A DNA stretch of 64,000 nucleotides from Naegleria gruberi (lineage: Eukaryota): the NCBI GenBank assembly GCA_000004985.1, contig GG738869.1; one strand, 5' to 3'. The position numbers and the translations under genes are program-made. Position 1 is the stretch's first letter; every line of letters starts with the position of its first letter. Positions 9,349 to 57,764 of the stretch are shown here, in pieces. The notes under the pieces are model-generated. The model was not told where the DNA came from and searched no databases. It was given only the letters and a program-made list of their open reading frames with translations.

Positions 9349-12300
9349 ATGCAAAACGTCAATATTTATTCATCACAAAGAAAATACATGAATCGGCAAC
9401 TTTCCAATAACCAGATCTCTTCAATGAGTCAAGACAAAACCAACAATACATCCACAACAACAGTAGGAGAACCAGCACTTCTGGATTCTTCTCCTCACCA
9501 TCAACAACAACAACTCGAAGAAGAATTAATTCCCTCTTCATCATCGTCAACAACAAGCACAACCCCTCCACTATTACTCTCCAATCATAATCATCAAAAC
9601 AACAAGAAAGAAGAACAATCACTTGTTGCTACCAACTATAACACTCCTATCAATTCATCAACTCCTCTCGAAAATTCTTCTCCTTCCTCCTCTCCAAGCA
9701 CGACAGACGCAACAAAATCTTCTTCATCACCAAGTAATTCTCCCGCCAAACCGAAATTCAATTCAAAGGAAAAAACACCACAAGAAATCTACAGTGAATT
9801 GGCACTTGGTATTGCAGGCTCGAATTTTGGTTATCATCAACAGCAGCAACAACAGCAGGTGGGAAATAATGTGAGGCACTCGATAAGTATTCAACAGACG
9901 ACGAATAGGAGAGGAATAGCCTTTGAGTTGGGACGTGATGATGATGATTGTTCGGAAGGATTTAATAAGAAGGATTTGATGGATAAGGCTGATAAGAGAA
10001 AGAGTATTTCGATTGTTAGTAGTTTGGATATTCAACAGGTAAATCCAATTAGTCTTCATAAGAAGAAGAAGAAAAATTCACCAAGTTCAAAACAACCATC
10101 ATCAAATCATCCTAAAGGAGGATTATTCATGTTTTTCAATAATCCAAGAAATTCAATTACTAAAAGATTCAGAGCAAGTGTATCGGGAAAGGAAATGGAT
10201 GATGATTTAACTAAAATTCAACAGGAAATTAATGATCATGAGAGAAGGAGAACTCTTGGTACTACTTCAGACGAGGAAGTTGACGAAGAAACCAAATCCT
10301 TCTATAACATTATTCGAAATGGTGTTAGAAGAGGTAGTTCGAAACAATTGGAAACTCCTGTGAATTCTGGAAGTTTTATGGTTTTGGATGCCTCTCCTAG
10401 GATTCAGTCCAGTGATGTAACAAGAACTGGACCAATTCAAAATGTGGCCATGTCTTTGTGGACTAAGGTTGACAGTACTATTGCATTTAGATTGATGGAT
10501 TACTGCTCCTTGTTTGAGGTGAGCTCCCTTTCTAGGTTGAATCAAGAATGGCTTTCTTTTGTGAAGGGCTATTTTAGTAACCATTGCGATCCAGAAAATT
10601 TGAGAACTTGCATGTTGCTACTCTACTTTAAGTTGCAAGGTATCTTCTCAAATTTGAGAGCAGAGGTTTCTGCTGAGGACAGACATTTGAAATCAGTGTA
10701 TAGCGTTCTATTAAGTCACAAACATCTTTTGGAGCAATCTTTGACTAATACTTCAAAGAATAGAATTAGTATTACAACATCACGAGAACTTGGACTGGGA
10801 GATTTATTTTTGAACACATACCTGAATAATCTATTCAATATTATTCCAAGAGTTGCATACTATACAGCTAGAAAGAATGAAAGGAAGGTCATTAATTTTA
10901 ACGAAATTCAATATTCCTTAACTGTAGAAATATTTTTAAGAGACGAAACAGTTGTAAATACTCTAGATACGTACGATATTGAAAGATATGTACAAAACTA
11001 TTCAGGATCATTCGCTACTCAGTTAATTGCCACCTCAATGGCCTATTTTTCTGTTTACTATCTTAAAATAGAAAACTATACTCCTGCCACAGAACCTTTT
11101 GAGCTTACTGAATATACTGAAGCAGGCACTCCAGAGGCAAGAAGAGTAACTATTTCTGGTAACACACCAACTCCAAATTCGAAAGCAGGATCGTTTTCCT
11201 CACTCAAAAATCTCAAACTTGAAAGTAATTTTGAAGACACTATTGAAATGTTCAGAAGTCCCCGTACTCCTGCTACACCATCATCCAAAAACAATAGCTT
11301 CATAATGGACAAGGGAGAGTTCTTAATTGCCAAAGGTTCAGGTACAACCAAAAAGAGAAGAGAAAGTTTGGCTAGTGAGACTGGATCGGTCTCCTCCTCA
11401 ATCTCTACTCCTAATATTAATTTTAATTTCATTGAAATTATTCCGAAAGATAGTTCAGAGTTGGGCTATTTATTCCTTCTAGAATTCTTCAAGATTCTTT
11501 CAAAGTATATTAGGAGATTAACATTCAGCCGCAAACCTCATGCATCTGAAAGATTTAGAATGGACTATTTCTCTACAATGTCTCTATCACCTAATTGTGA
11601 GACCTTCTCAGCATTTATGACTAATGAAGAGGATGAATTTAAGAAAAATTCTAAAAAATTCAAAAGTGTTTGCAATGCTATTGCAACCTCAGAGGCACTA
11701 ACATGCTTAGTTATGGGTGGAAAGGAATGGAATCAAGAGGATGTCAACATTCTCTTCAATTCCCTTAGTAGGGCCGGTGATGAAATTAAACGAGATAACT
11801 ACAAAATAGATTTGATTCTTCCATGTTTGCTGGAAATTAGTGAAAGATGCACCAAGCCAAAACTGAGACCATCCATCTTCCTTCCTCCACCAACCAGTGA
11901 GAGTCTTGTCAGCGAAATTAATATTGCAGAAATTCATGAAAGTGTCACATCTCCTAGAATTCAAACAGACAGCATACAACCTTCCTTTGTTGTTTCCTCA
12001 TCTGGAGACTCACAAATTTCAAATGATTTTGATGAAGGTATTGTAAGATGGCCAAAACATTTAAAGCGTGTGTATTTGACAGATATCAATGAAAACTTGA
12101 TATTCCATGAAAGATGGTTGAATGGAAGTCCAGAAATGACTTCACTACATTTTAATTTTTCACTTTCTTCTCCTATTAATTTTGATGCTATTTGCCTTTG
12201 CTCAAATCTCAGATATTTACACATTTCAGATTGTGTATTGGGAAATAATAAGAATACAGCTCTGAATTTAATTAATGCAATCAAGAAATTAGACAAACTA

Positions 12301-12654
12301 GAAAGCCTGTCTTTAGAAAGAGTGATTATGGAAAATAATGCTTGGATACAACTCTTTGATGATGTCTTGACAACTTCTCCTACTCTTAGCTCAATAAGAA
12401 TTGTTGATTCAATTAATCAAACAACAATAGTTTCTTCCTTTGTTCATGCCTCAAAAATTAGAATTGGTCAATTGGATAAAATTGAACTCAAATTGAAAGG
12501 CTTCGGTGAAAAAGACAAGCTACTGATCAACTCACTGATTGAACAATTAATGTTACACGGTAATGCCAAGACTGTTATTGCTGATTGTAAATTCCTAAAT
12601 CCAAATCAATCAGGTGAAAAAGACAAATCCAAGAAATCTTGCATAGTCATGTAA
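9349..12654 (+). CDS. Large F-box-like / leucine-rich-repeat protein with a Ser/Thr/Gln-rich N-terminus and C-terminal polybasic CaaX (KKSCIVM)
   Basis: 1101-aa ORF. F-box-like segment WTKVDSTIAFRLMDYCSLFEVSSLSRLNQEWLSFV. RNI-type LRRs near the C-terminus (LRYLHISDCVLGNN...LESLSLERV). Terminal Cys-Ile-Val-Met followed by stop at 12640-12654. Confidence 0.6.
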   Translation: MQNVNIYSSQRKYMNRQLSNNQISSMSQDKTNNTSTTTVGEPALLDSSPHHQQQQLEEELIPSSSSSTTSTTPPLLLSNHNHQNNKKEEQSLVATNYNTPINSSTPLENSSPSSSPSTTDATKSSSSPSNSPAKPKFNSKEKTPQEIYSELALGIAGSNFGYHQQQQQQQVGNNVRHSISIQQTTNRRGIAFELGRDDDDCSEGFNKKDLMDKADKRKSISIVSSLDIQQVNPISLHKKKKKNSPSSKQPSSNHPKGGLFMFFNNPRNSITKRFRASVSGKEMDDDLTKIQQEINDHERRRTLGTTSDEEVDEETKSFYNIIRNGVRRGSSKQLETPVNSGSFMVLDASPRIQSSDVTRTGPIQNVAMSLWTKVDSTIAFRLMDYCSLFEVSSLSRLNQEWLSFVKGYFSNHCDPENLRTCMLLLYFKLQGIFSNLRAEVSAEDRHLKSVYSVLLSHKHLLEQSLTNTSKNRISITTSRELGLGDLFLNTYLNNLFNIIPRVAYYTARKNERKVINFNEIQYSLTVEIFLRDETVVNTLDTYDIERYVQNYSGSFATQLIATSMAYFSVYYLKIENYTPATEPFELTEYTEAGTPEARRVTISGNTPTPNSKAGSFSSLKNLKLESNFEDTIEMFRSPRTPATPSSKNNSFIMDKGEFLIAKGSGTTKKRRESLASETGSVSSSISTPNINFNFIEIIPKDSSELGYLFLLEFFKILSKYIRRLTFSRKPHASERFRMDYFSTMSLSPNCETFSAFMTNEEDEFKKNSKKFKSVCNAIATSEALTCLVMGGKEWNQEDVNILFNSLSRAGDEIKRDNYKIDLILPCLLEISERCTKPKLRPSIFLPPPTSESLVSEINIAEIHESVTSPRIQTDSIQPSFVVSSSGDSQISNDFDEGIVRWPKHLKRVYLTDINENLIFHERWLNGSPEMTSLHFNFSLSSPINFDAICLCSNLRYLHISDCVLGNNKNTALNLINAIKKLDKLESLSLERVIMENNAWIQLFDDVLTTSPTLSSIRIVDSINQTTIVSSFVHASKIRIGQLDKIELKLKGFGEKDKLLINSLIEQLMLHGNAKTVIADCKFLNPNQSGEKDKSKKSCIVM

Positions 12655-18012: not shown

Positions 18013-18167
18013 AAGTTTTTTCAAAAAACTGCTGTACTGATTTTTTTCAATATTCCCTAAAGCTCCTCACCTAAAGCAATAATAAGGACTTTGTGAGCGG
18101 ATTTTGAATGATATTGGAGCAAAATTTGTCGTGCCCAACTCAATTTTCCATCACTACAAGATATTAA

Positions 18168-18182
18168 TCACCGCGTTTCATT
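18168..18182. repeat. Left copy of an inverted 15-mer (TCACCGCGTTTCATT) with patchy extension to about 18212
   Basis: It is the exact reverse complement of 27780-27794. Further blocks match inward (TTGCTT, TTGTAAA). Confidence 0.5.
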
Positions 18183-18828
18183 TTGCTTTTTGTAATAAAA
18201 GTTGTAAAGTTATGACGTTGGATAGCTTTATAGAAAAAAATACCATCACCAACTGACAAACCAAAAATTATTACCTCCCAACAATAATTAGTAACATCAC
18301 ATCCTACCTCGTCTCTTAGGTTGAGTTCTTTTATAAGAAAGTTCTTTTCATGTAGAGGTGTTTTATAATTATTCCAAAATTGAAGTAATTGTTTTACTAC
18401 GAGGTAAACTCACAACAAATTCTCAAGGAGATGATGTTGTGTTTTGGGATGTAATGTTTCTTATTATGTCAGAAAACATCTAGTAAGGAATGATTTATTT
18501 AGAAGAAGAACAACAACAATATTTAGAAGATATAAAACCATCACTGTGGGCTGATGATTTTCAGCAATAATTTAGAGAGACCAAACAAAAAATGATTTAA
18601 TATTGCAACATACAAACACACCACTTCAGCACCAACAGCAAGTAATCGTCTATGGAAAACTTCATCAAAGAGGGTCTCCTTTTTTTCATCACTAAATTCT
18701 ATTGATGAAGCATCATGACTATATCCGAGGATTGTGAAACAACAACCAACAGCAGGCTTTTACGATGATTCCGCACATTTGAATGAAGTATTAGTTTAGA
18801 TCAACTGGTACTGAAAAGGAGAAAAAGT

Positions 18829-21170
18829 ATGCTGCTTGTTTGGCTCCTACCTCATCACTTGCTGTTGCTTTTTGTTATTTACTCCTGAATGCGTTGCTAT
18901 CTTATATATGATTGTGATGTGTTTAATTAATAAGTTGGAGTGGGAGCAGCAACAGGGTAATAAATGTAAGTACCTACGATTTATTTGAAATTTTACCTTA
19001 ATTCCATTTCATAATTGACACCATGGAACATTTAAGGTGAAATCTTCACCAAAATAATAATTTGAAATAGTCAGTTTTGGAAAATGATGTCAGAGAATTT
19101 GATATTTATGAGTGTAATCTTTTCACATTTCAATTTGGTTGGTGCTATACATTCCATCATCAAGACTTAAGGTCCTGCCATTAATTAGAAACTGTGATGC
19201 AAGAAATAGTAACTGTTGTTGATGGAACTGTTTTAGAAGATTTAGCAAGTATTAATGTTGTCTACACAACAGCAACTGTTGCCATCTAAATCCTTACAAC
19301 TCTGAAGGTGAATTCATTTTGAAATATGATCCTCCAAGGGAAACTATGTTCATTCTCACTGATTAAAAGCTGATTTTACCGTTTGATTTGAGTGTAGACA
19401 TTTACAATAGATGATTCTCTTACACATACAGAGGTGAAAGAGATGCACTGATGATGTTCTTTCAACTCTTCAGTTTTGACTCAAGTCAAATTGTCTATTC
19501 AGTGGAAGGTATGGATGAGTTATCTATATAGTAGACACTTATAACTTTAGAATTAGAAAGCTATCAATTACCAATAAGACTATCATATTTATTACTTATC
19601 GGTGGACAAGAAGAAGGAAAACTTTGGAAATGAATATTACTGATACTCTTGCTCAACCAACAGGACTTGCTTTTTTCAGAATTCTGAACATGCTTCAATT
19701 AACACCATTCCATATACATTGCCTACAAGTTTTACATCAAGATTGTCAATGATCTTACAATAATTGCAAGATCTAGTGCTCCACCAACTCCAGGTCTGAG
19801 TTAGCAGCTCCTGTTCCTACTCTCAATACAACTATTGCCCCAACAAGTATTGCAGTTGGTGAGGATGGAAAAGTAACACACCCTCAAAATGTTAACACCT
19901 GCTCCAACCTGAACAATTTTTGTCGTGGCTAATACTGGATAATATCGGTCCTATTGAGGATGATGGCTTGGCTATTAGTTCTTCATTTATTACTGTTTCC
20001 TCTGAGGAGATTATTCTTGCTGATTGTATGAACAATAGAATTAGAAAGATTTGTGGAGAGGGAGTCATTACTACCAGTGGCTAATGCCTATGACTAAGAG
20101 AGATGTTTGAAAGTAATTGACCTAACCTTTCATTTTGCGTATTGTATGGAATGAAATGTCTCTAGTCAAAGAAGTGTTTTTGAGAATTGTGAATAGTGCT
20201 TCAGTGATCGTTTGGGCTCTTGTTGATGGTAAGGAAATGAGTAGAGATATCAAAAAGATTGCATATGATTTTGCCTTCTTTACTATTGATGTTTCACAAG
20301 TTTGCCAAGGAATTGTAGTCATTCAAGTTATGTTAATATTCGTAAAAAAATTGAGAAAATGACTCTTTGCCACCTTGCTGATTTTCGAAGTGGTTTCTCA
20401 GCACCAAACTTTCACATCATCATCTAAACATCAATTTAGTAGTAATATAGTAATTTTTATTGGAGTATTTTCTTCATTATTTTGGAATTTATCTTCATGA
20501 TGAAAAATCACAAGTTGATGAATCATCAGAACATTATTGTTGTTTTCCATCAATATAATAATTTTATTTGTGGAAATTAATATATAGTAATGAAATTACA
20601 CTAAAATCTTCATCACCGTTGGATTTAATGGAAAAGTTGGAAAACTATTAATGTGGCATTGTTGGAAATGGACAATAGTATGATATAAAACTTTGTTTGA
20701 TCACTTTTCATCAAGTATTGATAGAGATAGGTACATGTGAATTTTGAAAACTAACATGAACATTACTCCATGTGTACTTCAACCAACTTGAATACAATCT
20801 TATAGAACTACTAGTACTATTTAAATCACGAATAAACACCATATTCATCATCAAATATTCGTCATCTTGTCGATTACGGAATTTCATTCCACCAGTGTTG
20901 ATTCGGGCCCAACAACAAAATATTAACAATAAAACAATTACCAATACTATTGTTTACATGTTTTATGTTAAATGATCGTAACGATCATCAAGATCATCCT
21001 GTTTTTATTGCATTTCTCATGATAATCAGAAATGTCACAGAGAGTGCCACATATCCATTCTACTCTCAATAAATAATAGTTCCTTTTTACACATGTGCAA
21101 CTTTGCTTATAAACATGATGAATTCATATATTAAAGACTCCAAAGGCTAGTATAATCCTCAATGTGATGT
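18829..21170 (+). pseudogene. 5' arm of a decayed NHL-repeat receptor paralogue (related to the intact gene at 30615..34371)
   Basis: A signal-peptide-like MLLVWLLPHHLLLLFVIY starts at 18829 behind an A-rich context. Stop- and frameshift-interrupted NHL blades follow. 19519-19566 reads VIYIVDTYNFRIRKLS (intact gene: NIYFIDYYNYRLRKLS). A frame-shifted VDKKKENFGNE matches intact GDGKNENNGDG. 19971-20081 reads ADCMNNRIRKICGEGVITTSG followed by TAA. 20772-20975 contains IFIIKYSSSCRLRNF. The 3' limit is approximate. Confidence 0.65.
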
Positions 21171-21329
21171 CTAATAATACCATTACAACTTAAAGATAAT
21201 TATCTTATAATTTCATTGAATATGAATTGAATTTGTAAATTGACATAAAACAGTGGTTTATTGTAATTTGGTTTAAAAATAGCTTTCTAAAGCACCTTGT
21301 TGTATCTTGTTGTGACATTTACTAAAAAA

Positions 21330-22385
21330 ATGGCAAAAGCACCAGCACAAATTGTTATGGAGAACAAATTGCGGAAATCATTAACATTAAAACAATTCAT
21401 AGAATTATCCAAGTCTACAAGAAAAAGGAGATTAGATAATCTTCGTAAGAAATTCTTTAATTCAAATTTATTTAAATATTCTTGGAGTAAATGGCGAGAT
21501 GCTATTATCGGAACAAACAATTCAATCCAATATTTATTAAAACAAAGAAAAAACATAAAAAATAATTTATCAACATCTACAATTGATACAATAATTCAAC
21601 AATTAAAAGAGGAAAGGAACAAATCTACAAAAAAAGAATCCAAAAAAGATTTTGAAAAAAAAATTAATAATTTATTACAATCTAAAAATTTATTCAAAAT
21701 CAATGTTAATTTGATATTATGTAGTAATTTGGCTAATACTATTCAACTAATGTTTTTAAGAAATATACTTCCCGAAAATACCACTACTGAGGTAACCAAT
21801 ATATTGGATAAAATTAACCAAAGAAGATCAAAGGAAAATTATTATATAGGAAGTTGGGGAAAGAGTTCTTCTTTTCTATTTAAAACTAATGACACTATTT
21901 TTAATGAATTATCTTCTCAATTTATTAAAATTATTAATTTATTAAAAAATTATGTTTTGGAAATATTGAAATTTGGAAATAACAAGATGAGGAAATTCTT
22001 AGAAAAATACAATAGTAGTGATTTTTTATCAATTTATCCGACAGTGTGTTTTAATTTTTTGGATAAATCTGTAGATGAAAATAGAATTCTACATATTCAT
22101 CCGGATAAGGAAGACACTGGAACTAGTCTAATTTTTTACTTTGGAAAGTTTAAAGGTGGAGCAATCTCATTTCCTGAATTAAATTTTAAGCTTATGGTTC
22201 AATCAGCAGATGTTTTATTGTTTGATGGTAAGAATAATTTACATGCTGTTGAATCACTTCATGGTAAAGATGATGTTAGATATTCCGTTGTATTCTTTGC
22301 TCATAAAGCAGACTTGGGTAAAACTAGTTATCCCATGAATAGAGGAGAAGTTATGAAAGGTATTAAGAATAAAATCAATAATTAA
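21330..22385 (+). CDS. TET/JBP-family Fe(II)/2-oxoglutarate dioxygenase (NgTet-like 5-methylcytosine oxidase candidate), 351 aa
   Basis: The track start at 21297 is TTG; the true ATG is at 21330 (aaaaaaATG). The C-terminal core reads HIHPDKEDTGTSLIFYFGKFKGGAISFPELNFKLMVQSADVLLFDGKNNLHAVESLHGKDDVRYSVVFFAHK. It carries the HxD ... H ... R pattern of the double-stranded beta-helix. It parallels my recollection of Naegleria Tet1 (HKD...LFYFGNF...GDVLFF.G...H...R...VYFAHK). The N-terminal half is Lys/Asn-rich. Confidence 0.8.
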   Translation: MAKAPAQIVMENKLRKSLTLKQFIELSKSTRKRRLDNLRKKFFNSNLFKYSWSKWRDAIIGTNNSIQYLLKQRKNIKNNLSTSTIDTIIQQLKEERNKSTKKESKKDFEKKINNLLQSKNLFKINVNLILCSNLANTIQLMFLRNILPENTTTEVTNILDKINQRRSKENYYIGSWGKSSSFLFKTNDTIFNELSSQFIKIINLLKNYVLEILKFGNNKMRKFLEKYNSSDFLSIYPTVCFNFLDKSVDENRILHIHPDKEDTGTSLIFYFGKFKGGAISFPELNFKLMVQSADVLLFDGKNNLHAVESLHGKDDVRYSVVFFAHKADLGKTSYPMNRGEVMKGIKNKINN

Positions 22386-24134: not shown

Positions 24135-26864
24135 ATGGGAGTAGCGACACTTTTTACCAAAGCTGACGTTTTAAATTCCCACAACATCAAAAAGCAAAAA
24201 GAAACCAAACGTCCTGCCTTTGAAGGTGATAATGATAGATCGATTGTGGCGGCAATTAAAAAAACAAAACAACAAGCATCCAACGACTTTGAGTATTACA
24301 AGACATACAAAGAAACAGATTTCACTAATGAACAGAATTTTAGTTCAATAATTTATCAGATAATGCTAGTTCTATTGCCCTATTTTGTTTTTAAAATAAC
24401 CTCAGGATTATTAGATTTTGAATCAATATTATTATACTTTCTAGTCTCCACAAAAAAAGGCAAAGATTTATTAGCACAAGCCAATCTATATAGTACTGAG
24501 GGTGTTTCTTGGTGTGAAGCAATAGTATTTAAAGCAATTTGTAATGCAGATATAAGTATAGGGAGTTATGGTAGATTTATTGGTTGTTTAGAAGAATCTA
24601 GTAAATCAGACACATCCAGAAATAAGAAAAAGGCAAGACATTTTTTACCATCACTCTCTACAATAACAAAATATTCAAGTAGTTTACATCAAGTATTAGA
24701 TATCAATCATGCTGCAGATAGCGAAGGACTTTATTGGAGAATATTTTGTTCATCCATAGAACTTAATGACAGGACATTCAGATATGCAACGCTTCAAAAT
24801 GCAGAATTGTTTTTATTCTCATTTATTCGCTACCATGAAATGATCATAGGAGAATATATCTTCTTTGTAAAGATAAGATGTACTGTTGATGGTTCACCTT
24901 TAGAGGGAGCCTGTACTGCGTATGATATTGTATTAATTCATCCCAAGATAGATCCATTTTGTGCTCGTAATTATATTTCTGTTATTATTGCCGAGCCTAA
25001 AGAGGAAATAGCGTTCAAATTAAACATCTGGGATTTCTCTCGCCAGTTAATGCGTATCACACAGTTGAAATACTCTGTACCTAATGAAGAAACAAGAATT
25101 ATTCCTGTAAAATTTATTACCAACCCTGATAAGGGCGCCTTTAACAAAATTATAGATGTGGAAAAGGTAACGCCAATTTGTGATCCTATTTTTAATTTGG
25201 TAAATCTTTATTGCCTATTATCAATGATTTTCAATACAGATAATTCCTTAATACTACCTCTAATTCCAACAATAAGAGGAGATTGTAATAATGATAGCAA
25301 CAAAGCAAAAGGACAAGCAAATCTAGCAAAGGTTATGGAAATTAAAAAGATTATGCCTGAAACGTTACCTTATTACCACAACATTCCAACAAAATCCCAA
25401 ATATTTACTGATTTTCAATTAGATGAAGATTCTATTTTTTTAATTGAAAAATTTATCATTAAGAAACCTCAAACAGATTATTTATGTTGTATGTTTTGTT
25501 ATTTAACTAAACAAACAAAAAGAATAGCATTGAAGTATCCTGATTTGTGTACATGGAAATGGTACAGATCAAACGAAAGCTCAAGTAATGCTTTAGGCTG
25601 GCCTTTTAAAAGTTTTTCATGGTGTCTTTCGCATGATATAAGAGCCTGTGGTCAGAATCTTATTGAAGAAGAGGTGGGACAAATTGAAGAAGATAGACAA
25701 TATTTTGCCAAATTATTCAGTTCTGAATCTCCAATTGCCTCTTTGAAATGTGGTTCTAAAAAGCTAATTAATGAACAACTAGATGCCAACCTTGTTTCTG
25801 AATTTGAGTTTTGTCAATGGAGTGTATTTGAATTAAAGGTGAAAGAAGAAAAAAAGAAAAACAAAACAGGAACAGAGCTACGAACTAGTTCAGTTAAACT
25901 AATCTATGATCAGATTTTGTTTAAACAAATAGACAAAATTATAATGACAATAGATGTTTGGTATCCTCATTGGCTCACATATCGAGAAAACAAACAATTA
26001 CAGGTTTGTCAATCCCTTAACAATAATCAATCATTTGAAGATTGTACAAATGAAGAACACTCCAAGCGAGGAACATACAAACCAAAAAACTATGAACATA
26101 TATGGAAAGCTCTTCAAAAAACATACATTACTCTTCGCCAACCAAAATCTAAATGGTTAGAATGGAAGAAAACTGGATATCAAGAGCCATTGCTAATATT
26201 TAAGAATTTAAATAAGGTTTGGATAAAAGATATTTTAGGAAGAATATCAGAATATTTACACATTCATCAACATGCAGATATTGTGTTCGATGAAGTAGAA
26301 GAATCATTCGTAACAACATCAAACATTGGATCTGAATCTAAAAATTCTTTAAGAAGGAAGCGTCATGTTTCATTTGGAGTTAATGGTGGTTTAAGACATC
26401 CTTGTGATGATTCTTTATATTATGACAGCAAAAGAATTCTTAATGAATTGAAGATCCTTGCTGAGACTCCTAATATTATTGCAAGACAAGATGAGATCAA
26501 AAGAAAACAAGTTTCCGAAAAAGAAAAACTCACACAACCAAAAAAGAAAAGAAAATCTGAAACTACTACACAACCCAATCCAATAAGCTCAACCAATTCC
26601 TCAATTAATTATATCAATCCTTCCCTATTACAACCTCTACTTCCAGATAATTTTAATTCAATTACATTACACAATCAACACTCCTTCTCACCTCCTATAT
26701 ATATTCATCCTCTTCAACTCCAACCTCCACTAACTAACAATTTAACATTTTCTCAATTCAATCCTTCTCAAAATTCCAATAACCAACCAACATCTCCTTA
26801 CCAACCATCATCTCCATTTTCATTCTTTTCATCCTCCAATCCATCACCAAACTCCTTTTTATAA
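24135..26864 (+). CDS. 909-aa protein with DDE-transposase-like motifs and a Cys cluster (candidate CACTA/Plavaka/KDZ-like transposase or domesticated derivative)
   Basis: Intact ORF with aaaaaaaATG context. IRCTVDGSPLEG (D252, nt 24888-24890) is followed by a hydrophobic strand and ..IIAEPKEE... This parallels the DG(F/V)xPF ... WPV ... IPGPK block of EnSpm/CACTA-type transposases as I recall it. Second acidic candidate: FITNPDKGAF (D332). Cys/His cluster: CCMFC...C...C..H....C at aa 451-505, followed by SHDIRACGQNLIEEE. The tail is low-complexity and Pro/Ser/Asn-rich. The family assignment is tentative. Confidence 0.4.
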   Translation: MGVATLFTKADVLNSHNIKKQKETKRPAFEGDNDRSIVAAIKKTKQQASNDFEYYKTYKETDFTNEQNFSSIIYQIMLVLLPYFVFKITSGLLDFESILLYFLVSTKKGKDLLAQANLYSTEGVSWCEAIVFKAICNADISIGSYGRFIGCLEESSKSDTSRNKKKARHFLPSLSTITKYSSSLHQVLDINHAADSEGLYWRIFCSSIELNDRTFRYATLQNAELFLFSFIRYHEMIIGEYIFFVKIRCTVDGSPLEGACTAYDIVLIHPKIDPFCARNYISVIIAEPKEEIAFKLNIWDFSRQLMRITQLKYSVPNEETRIIPVKFITNPDKGAFNKIIDVEKVTPICDPIFNLVNLYCLLSMIFNTDNSLILPLIPTIRGDCNNDSNKAKGQANLAKVMEIKKIMPETLPYYHNIPTKSQIFTDFQLDEDSIFLIEKFIIKKPQTDYLCCMFCYLTKQTKRIALKYPDLCTWKWYRSNESSSNALGWPFKSFSWCLSHDIRACGQNLIEEEVGQIEEDRQYFAKLFSSESPIASLKCGSKKLINEQLDANLVSEFEFCQWSVFELKVKEEKKKNKTGTELRTSSVKLIYDQILFKQIDKIIMTIDVWYPHWLTYRENKQLQVCQSLNNNQSFEDCTNEEHSKRGTYKPKNYEHIWKALQKTYITLRQPKSKWLEWKKTGYQEPLLIFKNLNKVWIKDILGRISEYLHIHQHADIVFDEVEESFVTTSNIGSESKNSLRRKRHVSFGVNGGLRHPCDDSLYYDSKRILNELKILAETPNIIARQDEIKRKQVSEKEKLTQPKKKRKSETTTQPNPISSTNSSINYINPSLLQPLLPDNFNSITLHNQHSFSPPIYIHPLQLQPPLTNNLTFSQFNPSQNSNNQPTSPYQPSSPFSFFSSSNPSPNSFL

Positions 26865-26897: not shown

Positions 26898-27659
26898 TTA
26901 ATATTTATTCCATTTAACAGATTCATCAAGCATAGAGCAGAAATAATCAAATTCAATTCTAATCATCTTCTCTTCAGGTTTGTAAATTAATTTAAATTGA
27001 TTAATTCCAAATTTCCATAAAATACCATCATGCTCCCATTTAAATGCATACCACTTATCACTAAACAAAGGAGGAAGGCTATAATTTCCAGCAAACAACC
27101 AATGATATGTTATCTTTGGAACTATTCTTCCTTCCCTTGCAATGCCACCCTCAATCAACATCTCTTCTTTTAAAATGCTATATGGTTTTGCCTTTTGTAT
27201 TTGATAATCAAAGAATAGCTTTGCTTCGTGATCATCTGTTACAGAAACATAATGTTGATGATGCCACTTGACATTATGGGTTGTATCTGGCTGAGCATTT
27301 CTAATAACTACCTCCTCAATAGTTCTCGGAAGTACCTTTAGGTATCTTGTTGCATAATATTCATCAGAATATTTTTCATCCATTATCTCACGCAGTGTTA
27401 TTGTTGGTAGGGAAGTATCAAAAAAGTATTCAAGTTGTTGTCTTTTCTCTAATGGTATGTTCACTTTCTTACTCTCTTCACTGCCTTCAAGAATGTTTGT
27501 TACTTGGCGTTTAGCTGTTTTCAAATCATCAACCTTCTCTACAACAAAACGTATTTTGTTTGTATTGTTATTCTTCTCCAACGATTTATTCATAGCTACC
27601 CTCTTACTTTTGCTCAACCTGTATACTTCAAACGTTACTTCTGTTTTGTTGGTGACCAT
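26898..27659 (-). CDS. Hypothetical protein (orphan), 253 aa
   Basis: Uninterrupted ORF with an ATG start; no recognisable motif. The Trp/aromatic-rich C-terminal half (WYAFKWEHDGILWKFGINQF) suggests a folded domain. Confidence 0.45.
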   Translation of the reverse strand: MVTNKTEVTFEVYRLSKSKRVAMNKSLEKNNNTNKIRFVVEKVDDLKTAKRQVTNILEGSEESKKVNIPLEKRQQLEYFFDTSLPTITLREIMDEKYSDEYYATRYLKVLPRTIEEVVIRNAQPDTTHNVKWHHQHYVSVTDDHEAKLFFDYQIQKAKPYSILKEEMLIEGGIAREGRIVPKITYHWLFAGNYSLPPLFSDKWYAFKWEHDGILWKFGINQFKLIYKPEEKMIRIEFDYFCSMLDESVKWNKY

Positions 27660-39468: not shown

Positions 39469-39542
39469 TACAGCGAGCGGGGCTTGAACCCGCGACCTTA
39501 AGCGTGTTAGGCTTACGATCTAACCAACTGATCTATCGCTGC
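39469..39542 (-). tRNA. tRNA-Val (anticodon AAC)
   Basis: The reverse complement reads GCAGCGA TA GATC AGTTGGTTA GATC G TAAGC CTAACAC GCTTA AGGTC GCGGG TTCAAGC CCCGC TCGCTGT A. This folds as a full cloverleaf with the GTTCAAGC T-loop and anticodon loop CT-AAC-AC. A TTTT run lies shortly downstream on the minus strand. Confidence 0.9.
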
Positions 39543-47170: not shown

Positions 47171-47251
47171 GCAGGGGTTCCCGAGTGGTCAAAGGGGGTA
47201 GACTCAAGTTCTACTGCGCAAGCTTCGTGGGTTCAAATCCCACCTTCTGCA
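47171..47251 (+). tRNA. tRNA-Leu (anticodon CAA), class II with long variable arm, no intron
   Basis: Acceptor stem GCAGGGG pairs with CTTCTGC (two G-U pairs). Anticodon stem-loop GTAGA CTCAAGT TCTAC. T arm GTGGG TTCAAAT CCCAC. Discriminator A. Followed by a T6 run. Confidence 0.9.
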
Positions 47252-56783: not shown

Positions 56784-57487
56784 TTATTTCTTGGACTTCT
56801 TTTGTTGGATTCTCTTCAAGTAGAAAGCCAATTCAGCACCTTCCAAGACAATACCGTCAGCACGACCAACTTGACCTGGTCTAGATCTAATTCTAGCCAA
56901 CAATCTACCAGTGGACAATTGTTCCTTGAGGAGAGGATCAACTTCTGGAGCCTTCTTTCTATTTTCCAAAACCTTAGCCTTGGTCTTTTCGTCCATCTTT
57001 TCCAAGAGGTCTTCCTTCTTCTTACCCAAGGAGATACCGTAGGTCTTTTCGTAGAATTGCTTGAATGGAGAAGCATCAACCAAAACAACAGCACCCTTGA
57101 CGATAGCCTTAGTTCTGACCAATTCGTTGTTAGTGGCGTTGTAAACAACGTCCATGATTCTGGTTGGAGTAGACATAGCTTCAGAACCCCAAGCGAAGTT
57201 ACCGCTGTTCAATCTGAGGGCTCTAACCTTGTAGTTACCACCTCTAACTCTGACCATGGAGATCTTAGTCTTACCCATCTTGGTGTTAGCAGCAGCTCTA
57301 CCCAATTCGAACTTTCTCTTCTTTCTGTGGATCTTTCTCTTACCACCGGTAACACGCTTCTTATGGAGATCGCTCTTGGTAATACCTGGTTATTGATAAA
57401 TAGTAATGCGATGTTAAAATTGTTTATATGTTGTTGCCAGCAACAGTTGTTATTAATATTAGTAGCGAACCTCATCTACGTACCCAT
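56784..57487 (-). CDS. RPS8: 40S ribosomal protein S8 (eS8), 201 aa
   Basis: Exon 1 is only ATGG (57484..57487). A 98-nt intron at 57386..57483 (GTACGT..ACCAG). Exon 2 is 56784..57385. The spliced N-terminus MGITKSDLHKKRVTGGKRKIHRKKRKFELGRAAANTK is canonical eS8. Strong codon bias. Confidence 0.9.
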
Positions 57488-57764
57488 TTTGACTTTGATG
57501 TATTTTTTTTCAACAAATTTTTGGTTAACTAGCAAAGAAGTTTTTTACAACCAAAACCTTCAATAAAAATTTCTCAGCTGTTCGAAAAAAGACAAGTCTG
57601 CTTCAACAAAACACTTCCCAACACCATCAGTGCATGTCTTTGAGCAAACTATCAACAGATCACATGCATCAATATTGTACTACTGGATTGACATAGTATT
57701 CACCTTCGTCTATGCAATGAAAGTATCTTCTCTTTAAAAAAGTCTTTAAATTACAACAAAAAAT

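Follow-up and report, generated by a model that had tools for sequence, protein, structure and literature searches.

The Tet-like locus and its public gene model

The window analysed in this study, meaning the whole 64,000-nucleotide stretch of Naegleria gruberi DNA, carries at 21330-22385 on the plus strand a single unbroken open reading frame (ORF) of 351 codons, which encodes a Tet-like protein of 351 aa and ends with a TAA stop codon at 22383-22385 (Table 1). The frame as listed spans 21297..22385 (+), and its first ATG, at position 21330, is located 14 codons past an in-frame TAA at 21288-21290. An intact gene had been proposed here in a preliminary description made from the sequence, and the 351-codon frame was indeed open from ATG to TAA. 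Residues 141-351 of the ORF (211 aa, 60% of the query) were found to share 100% identity with XP_002676954.1. The same locus is recorded as XP_002676954.1/EFC44210.1, NAEGRDRAFT_79850 and UniRef D2VG54 of Naegleria gruberi, sits on a 747-kb N. gruberi contig, and is named either "hypothetical protein" or "Fe2OG dioxygenase domain-containing protein". Because of this identity of the 211 C-terminal residues, neither the gene nor its family is new, and the finding of a Tet-like gene is correct but ordinary. A text search of the available literature for the accessions of this gene found no paper naming XP_002676954.1 or EFC44210.1. The Tet expansion in Naegleria consists of eight genes, and XP_002676954.1 is presumably the eighth paralogue (mYOX8) in the NgTet1-8 list of Hashimoto et al. 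2014 and the related NEB patent. Three further accessions attributed to this list proved to be N. gruberi members of the Tet family.

Table 1 Features of the Tet-like dioxygenase gene, with positions in the 64,000-nucleotide window
Feature	Position	Strand	Basis
Full Tet-like dioxygenase ORF, 351 aa and TAA	21330..22385	+	ORF listing; match to NgTet1 in sequence and fold
Residues 1-84, Lys/Arg-rich lineage-specific tail	21330..21581	+	Composition, low pLDDT, no homologue
Residues 85-140, helix and two beta-strands (E126-131, E138-143)	21582..21749	+	Model, NgTet1 alignment; absent from the public model
Span of public model XP_002676954.1/NAEGRDRAFT_79850, 211 aa from Met141	21750..22385	+	100% identity, query 141-351
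K178, replacing NgTet1 N147	21861..21863	+	Alignment; PMC4678852
Double-stranded beta-helix core, residues 238-323 (E238-245 to E316-323)	22041..22298	+	Model, pLDDT above 90
C240, replacing NgTet1 A212	22047..22049	+	Alignment; mutagenesis in PMC4678852
R252 = NgTet1 R224, 2OG contact and flipped-base stacking	22083..22085	+	Alignment; PMC4678852, PMC8256090
HxD metal motif, H257 (22098-22100) and D259 (22104-22106) = NgTet1 H229, D231	22098..22106	+	Alignment
D262 = NgTet1 D234, cytosine N4 reader	22113..22115	+	Alignment; PMC4678852
H305 = NgTet1 H279, distal metal-binding His	22242..22244	+	Alignment
R317 = NgTet1 R289	22278..22280	+	Alignment; role from PMC8256090
V321, F323, H325 = NgTet1 V293, F295, H297; pocket, stacking, N3 contact	22290..22304	+	Alignment

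The public 211-aa model is probably truncated at its N-terminus, and the genuine product is likely to have a length of about 351 aa, with the ATG at 21330 as its presumed start. The longer product is favoured because Met141 (nt 21750), where the public model begins, falls within a conserved beta-strand (residues 138-143) of the AlphaFold2 model, because residues 114-140, upstream of Met141, were aligned by phmmer to residues 84-110 of NgTet1, and because all 140 codons upstream of Met141 are open. At the composition of this upstream segment 9.7% of random codons are expected to be stops, giving a chance probability of ~6e-7 for an open frame; none of 200000 shuffled versions stayed open, and the remaining five frames of the segment contained 2-18 stops each. 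Furthermore, the alignments of relatives retrieved by HMMER began at query residues 89-101. Neither a 351-aa nor a 342-aa product was found in a collection of 15 billion proteins. Expression of the public model would start within a core beta-strand and would lack about 56 residues of the fold, which makes the 351-aa ORF the preferable construct.

The N-terminal region was divided into two parts. Residues 1-84 are rich in Lys and Arg (K+R 24%, net charge +16), were modelled with low pLDDT, and contain an RKRR...RKK stretch that resembles a nuclear localization signal (NLS) and may act as one; no homologue of this segment emerged when 1.8 billion representatives were searched exhaustively with HMMER. 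Residues 85-140 form part of the conserved fold. The earlier reading of a long poly-basic N-terminal half outside the catalytic core thus holds for the basic tail of residues 1-84, which makes up about a quarter of the protein and not half of it, and does not hold for residues 85-140. NgTet1 carries an analogous N-terminal tail of 56 residues, disordered and unmodelled, as compared with 84 residues here, and a basic N-terminal tail is a trait common to NgTet1-like proteins.

Family placement, predicted fold and active site

A phmmer search of all PDB sequences with the 351-aa protein returned NgTet1 (5cg8_A and 4lt5_A) at E=3e-21, a similarity far beyond chance, with query residues 114-335 aligned to NgTet1 residues 84-307, and the NgTet1 chains were the sole real matches among PDB sequences. 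Conversely, tblastn with the NgTet1 sequence gave 31% identity over 204 aa at E=1e-21. NgTet1 (XP_002667965.1/D2W6T1; PDB 4LT5, 5CG8 and 5CG9) is from the same organism as the query, and the two share about 26-31% identity, the same fold, and a compact single-domain architecture without a Cys-rich or CXXC region. In the exhaustive HMMER search, only 32 proteins among the 1.8 billion representatives were retrieved at E<=1e-3. At least two of these do not belong to the family: P0006 is a cadherin-repeat protein according to Pfam, and P0021 was kept out of the family alignment as likely spurious. Besides the gene itself, the best match showed 33% identity; the nearest relative (P0002, 32% identity) is found on an unrelated 7.5-kb ENA contig of normal GC content that has nothing else in common with the window. 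The named family members were proteins of N. gruberi and Willaertia magna. A word-indexed protein search returned the gene alone, and one more protein when the family profile was used, so that the family became visible only through the exhaustive HMMER search. A scan of the JGI metagenomes for an orthologue gave nothing close. One family member from a JGI metagenome (P0016, 726 aa, on a 6.7-kb contig) was observed to contain two tandem Tet-like HxD...H...R modules, preceded by an N-terminal stretch that appears SAP-like by eye.

The N. gruberi proteins XP_002676528.1 (583 aa), XP_002668594.1 (207 aa) and XP_002674105.1 (174 aa) belong to the same family and recovered one another in HMMER searches. 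None of these paralogues is a recent duplicate of the gene, since their identity to the query is only 27-29%. Two of the deposited models seem short: XP_002668594.1 (P0012/P0040) has 207 aa, whereas its 90% cluster also contains a protein of 309 aa, and XP_002674105.1 (P0038, 174 aa) begins within the catalytic domain.

The Pfam Tet_JBP profile (PF12851) scored the query at 23.6 bits, below the gathering cut-off of 34.9, and the other Tet paralogues at 13-32 bits. This sub-threshold score is uninformative because NgTet1 itself, used as a control, gave no match at E<=1; the profile is insensitive to the NgTet clade. A precomputed database table does assign PF12851 to the 211-aa model, and NCBIfam yielded no meaningful match.

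To obtain a predicted fold, an AlphaFold2 model was built on the 30-sequence family alignment; it reached pLDDT >90 over residues 141-350. A Foldseek comparison of the model with the PDB placed NgTET1 structures at ranks 1-4 (E ~2e-21, 29% identity), with rmsd 1.7-1.9 Å over ~219 columns and a target TM of 0.74-0.75. These were followed by Coprinopsis cinerea CcTet and CMD1, and FTO, AlkB and prolyl hydroxylases appeared at E 1e-7 or weaker. The double-stranded beta-helix suggested by the preliminary description was thus reproduced in a predicted fold closest to NgTet1 and ahead of other 2OG oxygenases, and comparison with the NgTet1-DNA structures gave a superposition at 1.7 Å rmsd. With NgTet1 ranked first in the PDB both by sequence (E=3e-21) and by structure, the earlier TET/JBP (NgTet-like) assignment is upheld, and the protein belongs almost certainly to the NgTet branch of TET/JBP dioxygenases.

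More distant systems were also compared. CcTet (PDB 7VPN, 8JKK and 7W5P), the second-best structural neighbour, has a TET/JBP fold without the metazoan Cys-rich domain and shows 14-16% identity to the query with rmsd ~8-13 Å in the Foldseek alignment. Mammalian TET1-3 (human TET2, PDB 4NM6) employ the same catalytic chemistry and active-site logic, and human TET2 R1261, T1372, V1900 and Y1902 correspond to NgTet1 R224, A212, V293 and F295 (PMC8256090). The query lacks the features of metazoan TETs, having no Cys-rich domain, no CXXC domain by Pfam, no large low-complexity insert, and 2 Cys among 351 aa. The kinetoplastid proteins JBP1 and JBP2 have the superfamily HxD...H...R core in common with the query, but they are thymine hydroxylases with a J-DNA-binding or SNF2 domain, neither of which was found in the query by Pfam.

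For the residue map of the active site, the NgTet1 sequence was verified against the PDB residues in the phmmer alignment. The motif HIHPD contains H257 and D259, LLFDGKNNLHAVESL contains H305, RYSVVFFAHK contains R317 and H325, and SLIFYFGKFKGG aligns with LFYFGNF of NgTet1. All four motifs quoted in the preliminary description are present, and they match NgTet1 H229/D231, H279, R289/H297 and LFYFGNF column for column. The presumed ligands of the metal and 2OG coincide exactly with the catalytic residues, so that the refuting condition named in the preliminary description did not arise. Across the 30-member family alignment, H257, D259 and H305 were the only invariant columns, and N242 (NgTet1 N214), G272 and R317 were near-invariant. 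All five ligands of the metal and 2OG were kept, as were four of the six residues of the base pocket. In NgTet1, R289 forms a pair with 2OG's C5 carboxylate (PMC8256090), and R224, ion-paired to 2OG, lies stacked against the flipped base across from F295 (PMC4678852); the equivalent of R224 (human TET2 R1261) has been reported as strictly conserved among 5mC dioxygenases (PMC8256090). From the conservation of H257/D259/H305, R252, R317 and D262 it follows that the ligands for Fe(II)/2OG chemistry and the cytosine-specifying Asp are all present, and the protein is likely, as judged from sequence and model, to be catalytically competent.

Composition and genomic neighbourhood

The ORF has a GC content of 25.2%, as compared with 34.2 +/- 2.2% for the 27 other ORFs of at least 200 aa in the window (z = -4.2), and is the lowest in GC of these 28 large ORFs. 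Its GC3 was 19.0%, against 27.8% in the other ORFs of the window, and its flanks had a normal GC content of 32-33%. Lys and Asn account for 12.8% and 10.8% of the residues, respectively, which bears out the earlier description of the gene as AT-, Lys- and Asn-rich. The query is also much more AT-rich and K/N-rich than NgTet1, with FYMINK residues at 43.6% compared with ~34%. A separate outlier of the opposite kind was observed at 56802-57566 (+), where an ORF with no Pfam match at E<=1e-5 has 40.5% GC and a GC3 of 42.7%, compared with ~34% and 28% for the window.

Such a composition could indicate a decaying or silent paralogue that drifts towards AT under relaxed constraint and is no longer important. 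A strong AT/K/N outlier without an orthologue above 33% identity among the 1.8 billion representatives could mirror relaxed constraint, and the gene is flanked by two stretches devoid of ORFs, 3.3 kb and 1.75 kb long, the upstream of which resembles a decayed NHL gene. Nevertheless, 351 codons have stayed open at a composition where ~9.7% of random codons are stops, none of the five metal and 2OG ligands and only two of the six base-pocket residues have changed, and the core was modelled with pLDDT above 90, so that decay appears quite improbable. The AT-richness would instead reflect fast lineage-specific divergence within the gene expansion rather than a foreign origin, a reading that is favoured here short of proof.

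The upstream stretch (18013-21329, 3.3 kb) contains no ORF above 81 codons. NHL-repeat-like motifs were seen in it at 19519-19749 and ~20022 (+), namely VIYIVDTYNFRIRKL and IILADCMNNRIRKI, in different plus-strand frames and 488 nt apart; the Pfam NHL match of the stretch reached E=0.17 only, and no similarity to the intact NHL kinase of the window was detected. It may represent a decayed or intron-split NHL-repeat gene.

The neighbours of the Tet-like gene are ordinary chromosomal genes, including those for TPH-domain, WD40, Brix and lipase proteins and an NHL/EGF kinase, together with a diflavin-type reductase (flavodoxin, FAD-binding and NAD-binding), a prismane-family protein, an aminotransferase and a G-alpha protein. 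No DNA methyltransferase, glycosyltransferase or transposase was found near the gene, and Rfam and tRNA scans of its flanks returned nothing. Elsewhere in the window, a tRNA-Val(AAC) at 39469-39542 (-) and a tRNA-Leu(CAA) at 47171-47251 (+) were the sole Rfam matches.

The possibility that a giant virus or a phage was the recent donor of the gene, or that it travelled on a DNA transposon, was weighed against this setting. Fungal TET/JBP genes are often linked to transposons (PMC12730594), for example of the KDZ or Plavaka type, a foreign source would account for the AT-richness of a compositional outlier inside flanks of normal GC, and the same strand carries an orphan ORF of 909 aa at a distance of 1.75 kb downstream. 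However, a repeat search around 17.5-27.5 kb yielded short chance-level matches and neither terminal inverted repeats nor long direct ones (no TIR or LTR), and self-BLAST of the gene and its flanks against the window revealed no second copy, leaving the gene as a single copy there. Scans of IMG/VR with the Tet protein and with its 909-aa neighbour found no relatives, and the JGI metagenomes contained no close relative of the Tet-like gene. Structural matches in BFVD were remote, the viral structures reaching 14-17% identity at E ~1e-13 in comparison to 29% and E ~1e-21 for NgTet1, and the 909-aa ORF matched neither Pfam nor the PDB nor any viral contig. Nothing in these searches pointed to a virus or a transposon as the source, and a foreign origin is extremely improbable. 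Taken together, the locus is probably a chromosomal N. gruberi gene for an NgTet1 paralogue, a predicted Fe(II)/2OG-dependent 5-methylpyrimidine dioxygenase.

The 909-aa ORF (24135-26864, +), the next one downstream, is identical to XP_002676955.1 (NAEGRDRAFT_67858, "predicted protein"), which together with the identity of the Tet-like gene marks the window as reference chromosome sequence of N. gruberi. This protein ends in a low-complexity P/S/N/Q-rich C-terminal tail, and it matched no Pfam family at E<=1, transposases included, and nothing in NCBIfam, the PDB or viral contigs; its single-sequence AlphaFold2 model had a pLDDT of 34 and was unusable. A tyrosine recombinase was considered, as the protein had clustered with a 54-aa bacterial "phage integrase SAM-like" fragment, and was rejected when BLASTP showed no similarity between the two. 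The empty homology search for this ORF was due to the same clustering artefact, under the 54-aa fragment. Two further ORFs were noted in the window: a 253-aa ORF at 26898-27659 (-), whose exact product is recorded solely in assemblies from Logan and ENA, lacks a name at NCBI and matches no Pfam family, and a large orphan ORF of 1101 aa at 9349-12654 (+) with no Pfam family at meaningful significance.

Proposed function and its place in the Naegleria Tet family

By analogy with NgTet1, the protein most likely functions to oxidize 5-methylcytosine in DNA in an Fe(II)/2OG-dependent manner, and 5mC is favoured, with moderate confidence, as its main substrate. In an NgTet1-like reaction the enzyme would flip 5-methylcytosine out of duplex DNA and hold the flipped cytosine through D262 (N4), H325 (N3) and stacking by F323 with R252. 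The C5 methyl group of the flipped base would then be hydroxylated to give 5hmC, and onward oxidation to 5fC and 5caC may be possible. The basic 84-residue tail would probably serve nuclear import and/or non-specific DNA binding.

The base-reading residues bear on the choice between cytosine and thymine. In NgTet1, N147, H297 and D234 read O2, N3 and N4, respectively, and D234 directs the choice towards 5mC rather than T (PMC4678852). Minor activity on T is known for NgTet1 and mammalian TETs, and the D234N substitution alone shifts the balance between the two bases; TETs carry an Asn at the position of the query Asp262 (PMC4678852). Phage members of the family act comparably on 5mC and T, and the replacement of the O2-contacting Asn147 by Lys178 sets the pocket apart from the one in NgTet1. 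A thymine dioxygenase of the same fold and chemistry that prefers T, either JBP-like or forming 5hmU, was therefore considered. However, D262, the counterpart of the cytosine-N4 determinant of NgTet1, is kept as Asp, H325 and R252 are kept too, and Pfam detected no J-binding or SNF2 domain of the JBP type. The N147K replacement cannot separate C from T because O2 is common to both bases. On this evidence a thymine preference is unlikely.

A different substrate or co-substrate would be a further departure from NgTet1, for example 6mA as for CcTet, 5mC in RNA, or the vitamin C-dependent glyceryl transfer of CMD1. CcTet and CMD1 are the next structural neighbours of the protein, and chemistry has diversified among family members; CcTet is reported to be bifunctional on 5mC and 6mA (PMC11040006). 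The likeness to CcTet and CMD1 is nevertheless far weaker than that to NgTet1 (11-16% identity, rmsd ~5 Å or more), and both 2OG-binding arginines are kept, which fits ordinary 2OG chemistry. Such a change of substrate or co-substrate is highly improbable, and oxidation of 5mC in DNA continues to be the preferred function.

The extent of this oxidation may be influenced by Cys240. In NgTet1, A212, V293 and F295 form a pocket that allows 5hmC to rebind for further oxidation; A212G resembles the wild type, the reaction of A212V and A212N comes to a halt at 5hmC, and almost no activity is left in A212L, A212I and A212F (PMC4678852). The side chain of Cys is of intermediate size, and with this residue at the Ala212 position a slowing of the steps past 5hmC is conceivable. 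XP_002676528.1 shares with the query the Lys and Cys at the positions of N147 and A212. Because the same pair occurs in this paralogue, the K178 and C240 positions vary within the family and are not defining.

The existing record gains no more than a gene model that probably needs correcting and two active-site variants that occur naturally, besides the outlying composition of the gene. The importance of the gene is small, given that it is part of the reference N. gruberi annotation and that its paralogue NgTet1 is among the best-studied TET enzymes. The natural A212C and N147K variants nevertheless lend themselves, as they stand, to testing the pocket-size model that has been published for the extent of 5mC oxidation by TET enzymes. 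It is conceivable, but on balance doubtful, that this gene and XP_002676528.1, with Lys at N147 and Cys at A212, constitute a functionally distinct NgTet subgroup. If so, its members might halt oxidation at 5hmC or favour a different 5-methylpyrimidine context, and the extreme AT-richness of the gene would mirror fast lineage-specific evolution. The eight-gene Tet set of Naegleria would then represent divided product spectra and not redundant copies.
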